Shown in pieces: positions 13,919 to 14,194 of a DNA stretch of 64,000 nt; positions within the stretch are counted from its first letter, which is position 1, and every line of letters starts with the position of its first letter. Both the position numbers and the translations under genes were made by a program. This stretch comes from Candidatus Doudnabacteria bacterium (GTDB lineage: Bacteria > Patescibacteriota > Doudnabacteria > UBA920): contig PLYC01000021.1 in NCBI GenBank assembly GCA_003151625.1, positions 80,235-144,234 on the forward strand, written 5' to 3'. The notes below the pieces were generated by a model. The model did not search any database. It was given only the letters and a program-made list of their open reading frames with translations, and was not told the origin of the DNA.

Positions 13919-14194
13919 TTACGCCTCCTTCACGGTCAGTTCGATTTCGACCCACGACACCGGGCGGTCGCCCGGTGCCGTCTCCTGGCCCCAACGGGCG
14001 CTGCCGCGTGACAGCGGCAAGCCCATATTGAGGGCCTTGTTCGCCGCGTCAAATGCGGCCGAGCAAAAGCGCCCGCGGGCGCGCAGGACGATGTTTTTTT
14101 GCCCCTCGCCGAAGCGAGTGGCTATCGCCAACGCGTAGTTGGCGATGTTCTTCTTGCCGACCACGATGGGTCGGCTCGTTACTGTCTGCTGCAT
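13919..14194 (-). CDS. Alba-domain DNA/RNA-binding protein
   Basis: IVVGKKNIANYALAIATRFGEGQKNIVLRARGRFCSAAFDAANKAL aligns motif-for-motif with archaeal Alba ([46 protein letters not shown]). AAGGAGG RBS present. Confidence 0.75.
   Translation of the reverse strand: MQQTVTSRPIVVGKKNIANYALAIATRFGEGQKNIVLRARGRFCSAAFDAANKALNMGLPLSRGSARWGQETAPGDRPVSWVEIELTVKEA

Follow-up and report, generated by a model that had tools for sequence, protein, structure and literature searches.

The 64,000-nucleotide (nt) stretch of DNA analysed here (contig PLYC01000021.1 of assembly GCA_003151625.1, Candidatus Doudnabacteria bacterium, positions 80,235 to 144,234 of the forward strand), referred to as the window throughout, carries a gene for a 91-amino-acid (aa) Alba-family protein at 13919-14194 on the minus strand. 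The best overall explanation for this gene and its surroundings, which we hold with about as much confidence as doubt, is that Alba forms the nucleic-acid-binding subunit of a mobile module composed of Alba, a MoxR-class ATPase, a von Willebrand factor A (VWA) protein and a large structured RNA, and that it is probably bound to this RNA. The protein is a new member of a known family, whereas its context is new: the MoxR/VWA theme appears here with Alba and an RNA as unprecedented partners. The literature searched contained no mention of Alba together with MoxR, AAA+ and RNA.

The Alba reading frame starts with ATG, and a Shine-Dalgarno sequence (AAGGAGG) is located 9 nt 5' of the start codon. 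An earlier sequence-only reading of the window had assigned the protein to the Alba family, and profile, sequence and structure comparisons agree with this assignment. The Pfam search which that reading had proposed detected Alba (PF01918) with an E-value of 2.3e-5 and 24.5 bits, a match that narrowly misses the gathering score of 25 and is limited to aa 10-52. The NCBIfam AlbA models gave E-values of 7e-11 and 2e-8, with scores far below their equivalog cut-offs; consistent with these scores, the sole NCBI-named member of the protein cluster is labelled 'hypothetical protein'. According to a phmmer search against the PDB, 12 Alba chains match at E <= 0.02, the best being that of P. horikoshii (2z7c, E 3.6e-8). 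The chain of T. volcanium (4z9e, E 4.7e-8) aligns over aa 10-88, almost the entire protein, with the C-terminal strand noted earlier included. A search with an Alba-family profile yielded 498 family matches.

The AlphaFold2 model, calculated from an alignment of nine family members, reached a predicted local distance difference test (pLDDT) score of 89.6 and has the order beta-alpha-beta-alpha-beta-beta (strand 10-12, helix 17-29, strand 34-40, helix 41-56, strands 61-72 and 78-88), including the long beta3-beta4 hairpin of an IF3-C-like fold. In a Foldseek search of this model against the PDB the top 22 matches were all archaeal Alba, Sso10b, Mja10b or Mth10b proteins, with template modelling (TM) scores of 0.73-0.82 and up to 35% identity, followed by lower matches to eukaryotic Rpp20/25, plant and trypanosome Alba and SpoVS. 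The window gene encodes a genuine, if divergent, Alba protein.

Like the archaeal Alba/Sso10b proteins (1h0x, 2z7c, 4z9e, 3wbm), to which it is 34-35% identical, the window protein is about 90 aa long, adopts the same predicted fold (TM about 0.8) and contains the motifs GKK, NY and RARG, equivalent to K17, N21/Y22 and K40/R42 of Sso10b. It differs from them in being bacterial, rare and island-borne, in scoring below the Pfam gathering and NCBIfam equivalog values, in a conserved segment of its own (MGLPLxRGxxRWGQE), at the positions equivalent to F60 and K16 of Sso10b, and in its constant association with a MoxR-class ATPase and a VWA gene, a setting that the papers searched do not describe for Alba. 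Residues were mapped on an ungapped alignment in which the Sso10b numbering runs two ahead of the query (i+2 for query residue i). Within the nine-member family G13, K15, N19, Y20, R38, A39, R40, G41 and D49 are invariant; K15 and R40 are thereby the equivalents of K17 and R42, which belong, together with K16 and R44, to the basic nucleic-acid-binding residues of Sso10b. The earlier reading had further called for a check of the acetylation-site lysine, presumably K16 of Sso10b, and of the dimer-interface residues. The equivalent lysine, K14, is present in the window Alba but is replaced by Ser, Asn or Gly in other members. The equivalent of F60, the dimer-dimer stacking residue for cooperative DNA coating, is Gly (G58, in the motif NMGLP) in the window protein as in most members, and His in P0009. 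This substitution concerns chromatin-like behaviour rather than membership of the family.

The Alba stop codon is separated from the ATG of the ATPase gene by 3 nt only, and the ribosome-binding site of the ATPase gene (GAAGGAGG) lies inside the 3' end of the Alba gene. Based on this spacing the two genes appear to be translationally coupled. Besides the window, 12 distinct modules with gene context were available on contigs found via relatives of Alba and of the ATPase. An Alba gene accompanies the ATPase gene in all 12 as well as in the window, and in 11 of the 12 it is located directly 5' of the ATPase gene, which is followed by the VWA gene, although the ATPase identities span 36-100% across the 12. 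The core order is Alba, ATPase (370-444 aa), VWA protein (525-691 aa) and mostly c4, followed by a gene-poor stretch of 1.5-2 kb; an orthologue of the basic protein c4 (141-182 aa) occurs in 10 of the 12 modules. This core was found in loci L001-L008/L010 (one module type), L012, L013, L015, L016 and L028-L031 and on the P0161 contig. The remaining arrangement is that of L011, whose ATPase is 36% identical and in which two copies of the RNA stand between the tandem Alba and the ATPase gene, the VWA gene coming last, so that the Alba gene is located about 2.3 kb 5' of the ATPase gene. Of the roles offered by the earlier reading, that of a component of the adjacent MoxR system has thus gained most ground, and we have little doubt that Alba is a dedicated component of the ATPase-VWA module. 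In a scan of GTDB genomes a single locus was detected (L010), with the same module as L001-L003; JGI metagenome contigs gave no match to the exact RNA-motif pattern, and in a scan based on the ATPase alignment they gave unrelated AAA proteins only.

Loci L011, L012 and L028 encode tandem double-Albas of 181-197 aa and the other loci a single Alba. In a neighbour-joining tree of 125 Alba domains, a crude one without support values, all 21 context-verified module domains fall into one clade of 36 leaves, to which other tandem proteins of unknown context also belong; outside of it are the archaeal 4z9e and 88 family matches of unknown origin. On this tree, which the earlier reading had suggested as a check, the module Albas apparently make up a bacterial clade of their own, with single-domain as well as tandem forms, the latter representing putative covalent pseudo-dimers. 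The tandem fusions point to the dimer as the working unit and, being part of the same clade, lend indirect support to a putative binding of DNA or RNA by Alba dimers.

The earlier statement that Alba is uncommon in bacteria agrees with a 2024 survey of the family, which counts 55 bacterial among 15,161 members, mostly from metagenome-assembled or uncultured organisms, and explains them by transfer from archaea (PMC11621453). As far as the text of this survey could be covered by a term search, it gives no gene context and does not mention tandem forms, VWA or Patescibacteria (PMC11621453). In the survey the bacterial Albas are scattered among archaeal branches (PMC11621453), in contrast to the single clade seen for the module Albas in our crude neighbour-joining tree.

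As to the other roles that had been offered, a free-standing chromatin protein is the least likely of the three, because its gene is found only on an accessory island of sporadic occurrence, the protein carries Gly in place of F60, and the lysine at the K16 position varies within the family. The presence of a structured RNA in the same module makes RNA binding the most attractive role; that Alba acts by binding this module RNA is a proposal to which we give slightly less than even weight. Alternatively, Alba may act on DNA, as an architectural protein of the island or nucleoid, as a repressor or xenogeneic silencer, or as an autoregulator encoded first in its operon, with the ATPase, the VWA protein and the RNA acting separately. 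Archaeal Albas are abundant binders of double-stranded DNA, and the PDB matches include Alba-DNA complexes; the basic residues K15, R38 and R40 are kept, the Alba gene is promoter-proximal, and a winged-helix regulator (TrmB or MarR) is often encoded near the module. However, the strict adjacency to the ATPase gene and the apparent coupling, maintained over 36-100% identity, suggest a stoichiometric partner, and F60, which is needed for dimer-dimer stacking along DNA, is replaced by Gly in most members. Furthermore, the sporadic distribution excludes a general nucleoid role for the lineage, and fused hetero-tandem Albas would rather be expected on an asymmetric target than in a uniform coat on DNA. 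A function on DNA seems unlikely.

The ATPase gene (12731-13915, minus strand) encodes a protein of 394 aa that matches Pfam AAA_5 over aa 23-159 with 49.3 bits against a cut-off of 22, while bpMoxR (16.6 bits against a cut-off of 27) and AAA_3 match weakly. Its relatives number 25, with identities of 36-100%, and Walker A (GPPGTGKT) and Walker B (DE) are without variation in the 21 sequences compared. The AlphaFold2 model (pLDDT 89.0) shows an extra C-terminal domain at about aa 299-392, and the top 21 Foldseek matches were chains of NorQ, from NorQ-NorD VWA complexes, and of CbbQ (E 3e-13 to 9e-9, TM normalised to the target 0.57-0.75). Judged from this model, the ATPase is of the MoxR class with a predicted fold closest to NorQ/CbbQ.

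The VWA protein (625 aa, 10539-12416, minus strand) consists of a conserved N-terminal domain (aa 1-235), a low-complexity linker rich in G, S, E, K and D and a C-terminal VWA domain. Pfam VWA_2 matches all seven aligned orthologues, and the VWA domain of BatB was found in the PDB at E 1e-4. The metal ion-dependent adhesion site (MIDAS) is intact, its residues DSSGS (DxSxS), T and D being invariant, as is a YCPPPW motif in the N-terminal domain. The linker (aa about 235-400) varies widely in length between orthologues and is nearly gone in L011. The small basic protein c4 (146 aa, 10014-10454, minus strand), conserved 3' of the VWA gene, had no match in Pfam, PHROG, PADLOC, NCBIfam or the PDB.

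An AAA_5 ATPase encoded next to a VWA protein with a complete MIDAS is also characteristic of NorQ-NorD, CbbQ-CbbO, RavA-ViaA and midasin. Such MoxR/VWA pairs remodel dedicated client complexes, and the client of midasin is a ribonucleoprotein, the pre-60S particle. In contrast to these pairs, the ATPase of the module is extended by about 100 aa, which form an extra domain at its C-terminus, and the VWA protein combines an N-terminal domain unrelated to theirs with a long linker of low complexity. Unlike in the NorQ and CbbQ systems, no metalloenzyme client (cNOR, Rubisco) is encoded near the module, its neighbours being Alba, c4 and the large RNA.

MoxR-vWA modules also recur in conflict systems (PMC7159879), and the module might accordingly be an anti-phage or anti-plasmid MoxR-vWA NTPase system in which Alba, the RNA or both serve as sensor and an HExxH domain of the VWA protein as effector. 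The location in accessory foreign islands, the toxin-antitoxin neighbours and the sporadic distribution are in line with such a function, and HExxH is present in the VWA protein of the window and in most orthologues. However, the motif is missing from L011 and L012, so a conserved metallopeptidase effector was rejected; the metallopeptidase model Zincin_2 matches one VWA-protein member only (E 0.07). A known defence system was likewise rejected, since PADLOC models match the generic P-loop region only. Neither a beta-propeller, VMAP or effector domain (Pfam, PADLOC) nor a conserved nuclease, protease or pore-forming effector was detected in the module. It lacks a third component of the types described for the ternary MoxR-vWA conflict systems (Kaur et al. 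2020, PMC7159879), and Alba is not mentioned in that paper. A conflict system is in our view an improbable explanation. Both this function and an action on DNA are compatible with binding of the RNA.

The RNA is encoded in the gene-poor stretch downstream of c4, on the operon strand. Its 3' part is located at 8014-8330 (minus strand), with a core at 8014-8146, and ends in an H-type pseudoknot (AGGC/GCCU and GGCGA/UCGCC); the folding z-score of this part is -2.5. A 27-mer of this part (8040-8014, minus strand; GAGGCCCACGGCGAGCCUUAAUCGCCA) recurs without a mismatch in L012, a distant locus. A consensus structure of about 300 nt derived from seven copies contains compensatory changes in 14 of 24 pairs. 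The covariance model R1, which represents the 131-nt 3' domain, scores 121 bits at the window RNA and detects the RNA, always on the operon strand, in each of the 11 distinct modules whose DNA was readable, including one copy each in L015, L028, L029, L030 and L031, which had not been used in model building (E 1e-13 to 2e-27). Copies outside of the window are located in L002 (11186-11315), L011 (6614-6743 and 7637-7763), L012 (13423-13552), L013 (8669-8800), L015 (8055-8184), L016 (7585-7718), L028 (7000-7126), L029 (7749-7882), L030 (7405-7534) and L031 (7382-7515); over the 64 kb of the window R1 detected no second full-length copy. In a model-fitted alignment of 12 copies, pseudoknot included, 93.2% of the cells pair and 19 of 25 pairs have compensatory changes on both sides. 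The covariation score of 0.626 was reached by none of 500 shuffles, and slid controls scored 0.06-0.17.

A second conserved domain, M (8601-8717, minus strand), consists of a long two-part hairpin with a CA-rich apical loop of 20 nt, followed by GUCAGG and a short hairpin. It was found in 10 of the 11 modules with readable DNA, about 600 nt 5' of the 3' domain in the window and about 570-870 nt 5' of the 3' pseudoknot in the nine other loci. The stems of domain M are unrelated in sequence between loci, which is why the copies were folded singly, yet each folds to the same architecture, so that the stems covary completely. Furthermore, an extra hairpin (GCGACCU/AGGUCGC) with the loop ACCAAACAC is located at 8463-8512 (minus strand, repeat D3) and overlaps a weak partial R1 match at 8475-8503. 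In total the window has at least four hairpins with ACCAAWCAC-type loops, and across the gaps of every locus the CA-rich motif was counted 27 times on the operon strand and once on the opposite one. These observations suggest an RNA of at least 700 nt that would be built of repeated CA-loop hairpins.

The two RNA domains account for only part of the gap that separates the c4 gene from the 3' domain. Neither this gap (8147-10013, minus strand) nor its equivalents of 1.5-2 kb in related loci contain a conserved reading frame. A hidden gene was rejected, as no consistent long frame emerged with TGA, TAG or TAA read as sense, and tblastx between the gaps gave two marginal matches (E 0.001; 20 and 8 aa), both inside the RNA motif. 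A stretch of 1.5-2 kb lacking a reading frame is unusual for a compact genome of the Candidate Phyla Radiation (CPR). A promoter-like site is present in the gap at 9002-8973 (minus strand).

The RNA resembles GOLLD, ROOL, OLE and raiA in being large and composed of many helices, in its strong covariation and in its location on accessory elements. GOLLD and ROOL RNAs often adjoin tRNA genes, and a similar arrangement is seen in L013, where a tRNA-Phe (GAA) gene (8803-8875, in this locus only) starts 3 nt past the RNA pseudoknot; the window has no tRNA gene. Moreover, Ro60 (TROVE-VWA) and its Y RNA provide a parallel for a VWA/MIDAS protein paired with a dedicated structured RNA, the VWA protein of the module differing in its lack of a TROVE domain. 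A known RNA family was nevertheless rejected: Rfam 15 has no match across the window at gathering thresholds, and even at E <= 5 the region 7700-10100 gave chance-level matches only, none at the strand and position of the RNA. The Alba and MoxR partners fit none of these RNAs.

The RNA might instead regulate the island genes downstream of it in cis, as a riboswitch-like leader or attenuator without a physical link to Alba, and Alba, the ATPase and the VWA protein would form a protein-only chaperone system. In line with this, the RNA lies 34-390 nt 5' of the next gene in the window, L002, L012, L015 and L016. In the window the RNA is succeeded by a hairpin (7966-8017, copy 1 of repeat D1) and, beyond it, by a long G+C stem that carries a U-tract (7900-8013, minus strand); these stems form in the minimum-free-energy fold, and the G+C stem is a probable terminator. 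In addition, the outer 3 bp of the long helix compete with stem 1 of the pseudoknot, and both pairings covary in a switch-like manner. However, the next gene varies between the loci, being of the o361 type, the VWA gene (L013, with tRNA-Phe between) or the ATPase gene (L011, after two RNA copies), and an RNA of this size with several CA-loop hairpins is far larger than known leaders. We consider a mere leader as improbable as a conflict system. The arms of the D1 hairpin are GGGGAACAAAAG...CUUUUUGUUCC, and a second copy of this repeat (52 nt, 73% identity) is found between the ATPase and VWA genes at 12643-12694 (minus strand). D1 was rejected as a feature of the module, since none was found in other loci with up to 8 substitutions, a search that also missed the diverged window copy.

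Returning to an Alba that acts within the module, an Alba dimer would bind the module RNA, which is predicted to display its CA-rich (ACCAAWCAC) loop hairpins and to end in the pseudoknot. The arrangement would be like that of the Rpp20/Rpp25 (Pop7/Pop6) heterodimers, which adopt the Alba fold as well (Foldseek E 6e-5 to 3e-3) and hold the P3 domain, a helix-loop-helix, of the large non-coding RNA of RNase P/MRP and occur in yeast telomerase; the tandem double-Albas would be the covalent equivalent. Rpp20/Rpp25 are far less similar in sequence to the window protein than archaeal Alba is, the RNA of the module is not that of RNase P/MRP (no Rfam match), and RNA binding is here a prediction. The ATPase hexamer and the VWA protein as adaptor may then assemble, remodel or recycle the RNA-protein particle, by analogy with NorQ-NorD, CbbQ-CbbO and midasin and their targets. 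Expressed in full, we tentatively propose, with somewhat less than even confidence, a so far undescribed RNA-protein machine in which a multi-hairpin RNA of about 0.7-2 kb, with CA-rich loops and a pseudoknot at its 3' end, would be bound by Alba dimers or double-Albas and by c4 and would be loaded or remodelled by a NorQ/CbbQ-like AAA+ hexamer with its VWA partner; the machine would spread horizontally among Patescibacteria.

Several points weigh against a module of this kind. The contact between Alba and the RNA is predicted, and so is the RNA as a single transcript. Since double-stranded DNA is a ligand of archaeal Albas in addition to RNA, a role on DNA is possible for the window protein too. 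The equivalent of Sso10b R44, R42, is present in the window Alba but is Glu or Gln in three members. In L015 the RNA ends 34 nt before a start codon and may be a cis-acting leader. Only 12 copies of the RNA are known, and counting covariation on an alignment fitted to the model is biased towards structure. The context-verified set of Alba domains excludes the clade members P0011, P0014, P0016-P0019, P0021, P0023 and P0036 and the unplaced P0013, and all sequences are derived from metagenome assemblies.

Alba belongs to the oldest nucleic-acid-binding folds, and it is a matter of debate whether it first bound RNA or DNA. Bacterial Albas have so far been database curiosities ascribed to horizontal transfer, and a bacterial clade with fixed partners, namely an ATPase/VWA pair and a covarying RNA, provides a testable hypothesis for their function. 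If the proposal is true, the module would represent a bacterial, mobile counterpart of the partnerships between Alba-fold proteins and RNA known from RNase P/MRP and telomerase. The RNA is also a candidate for a class of large non-coding RNA in CPR bacteria, whose small genomes seldom spare 2 kb, and possibly the first RNA-linked client of a MoxR/VWA system. For structural work, the tandem double-Albas offer a natural single-chain dimer.

The module is part of a GC-rich island of about 9.5 kb (4800-14280), which comprises the module and variable cargo, all encoded on the minus strand. It is bounded on one side by the rpoB promoter, a promoter-like site being located at 4774-4747, and on the other by the divergently oriented gene of a TrmB-family regulator. 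The host rpoB contains the bacterial Rpb2_45 domain and is 86% identical to its sole relative with an organism label, 'Patescibacteria group bacterium', and genes for RuvA, a Mur ligase, FemAB and TsaD are located nearby. By these markers the host is evidently a Patescibacteria (CPR) bacterium, in accordance with the CPR-like genome recognised earlier.

The island has a GC content of 55.2% against 44.3% in the remaining window. The Alba gene reaches 63.8%, and 81.5% at third codon positions (GC3), while the flanking host genes have 42-47% and a GC3 of 40-51%; the gene is thus compositionally foreign, in line with the acquisition suggested earlier. The same anomaly is seen in L002 (island 53-58%, flanks 31-41%). 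Between the window and L002 the ATPase (64% identity), Alba (66%) and the VWA protein (53-73%) are far more alike than the flanking TrmB proteins (30% only), while c4 is 38% identical. Furthermore, a word-indexed protein search found nine Alba clusters, compared to more than 120 rpoB clusters listed at >= 77% identity to the host rpoB. Toxin-antitoxin pairs border some of the islands, which fits a variable genomic-island setting. Foreign GC content, the relatedness of the module genes, the sporadic distribution and the toxin-antitoxin borders together indicate that the island is probably a horizontally moving accessory element. The pairs belong to the HEPN/nucleotidyltransferase, HicAB and MazE/PIN types and are located at 13717-14426 in L001/L002 and at 59-527 and 11819-12510 in L015.

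A phage or plasmid origin was rejected, as neither hallmark genes nor specific homologues in phage, plasmid or IMG/VR collections were found. The PHROGs scan of the island returned generic ATPase matches and one family of unknown function, and no integrase, phage or plasmid hallmark. A tblastn search with Alba had no match in 50,697 phage or 72,556 plasmid records, and the ATPase matched in these collections only generically, to AAA genes of mycobacteriophages. IMG/VR contained no Alba (alignment scan), no ATPase and no RNA 27-mer. Direct repeats resembling attachment sites at the island ends were sought, and none was convincing. An assembly chimera was rejected since host sequence flanks the island on one contig of 247 kb, and the recurrence of the L001-type island in independent ENA, JGI, NCBI and Logan assemblies also speaks against it.

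The TrmB-family regulator next to the island (15125-15967, plus strand; Pfam TrmB E 4e-11) has a host-like composition. A TrmB gene is also located near the module, a few kb 5' of it, in L001-L003 (about 2388-3185), in L012 (1703-2470) and on the P0161 contig, which together with the window represent four distinct module types. The module may tend to insert near such genes, or TrmB could be a regulator of the island that evolves quickly. Directly 5' of Alba, the two distant loci L012 (4496-7138, two tandem copies) and L015 (1435-2643) encode members of a family of 375-439-aa proteins that lack a Pfam match and have no counterpart in the window.

Among the variable cargo, the gene o361 (6721-7806, minus strand; orthologue cluster c9) matches PHROG 23674 (function unknown) at E 1e-10. 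According to tblastn, its aa 137-236 share 45% identity with the products of genes (158-172 aa) located 3' of the RNA in L002 and L015.

Outside of the island, a 779-aa protein with a C-terminal GNAT domain is encoded at 15964-18303 (minus strand) and converges on the TrmB gene. By analogy to Pat it was considered as an acetyltransferase of Alba, which was rejected because the neighbours in L002 and L012 are unrelated and K14 is not conserved. Further along the window, two very large open reading frames (1668 and 1241 aa) were observed at 38889-43895 and 44091-47816, both on the minus strand; they lie in a region whose GC content is slightly raised (0.48-0.52) and are adjoined by a 1-kb patch at 48001-49000 with a GC content of 0.54.

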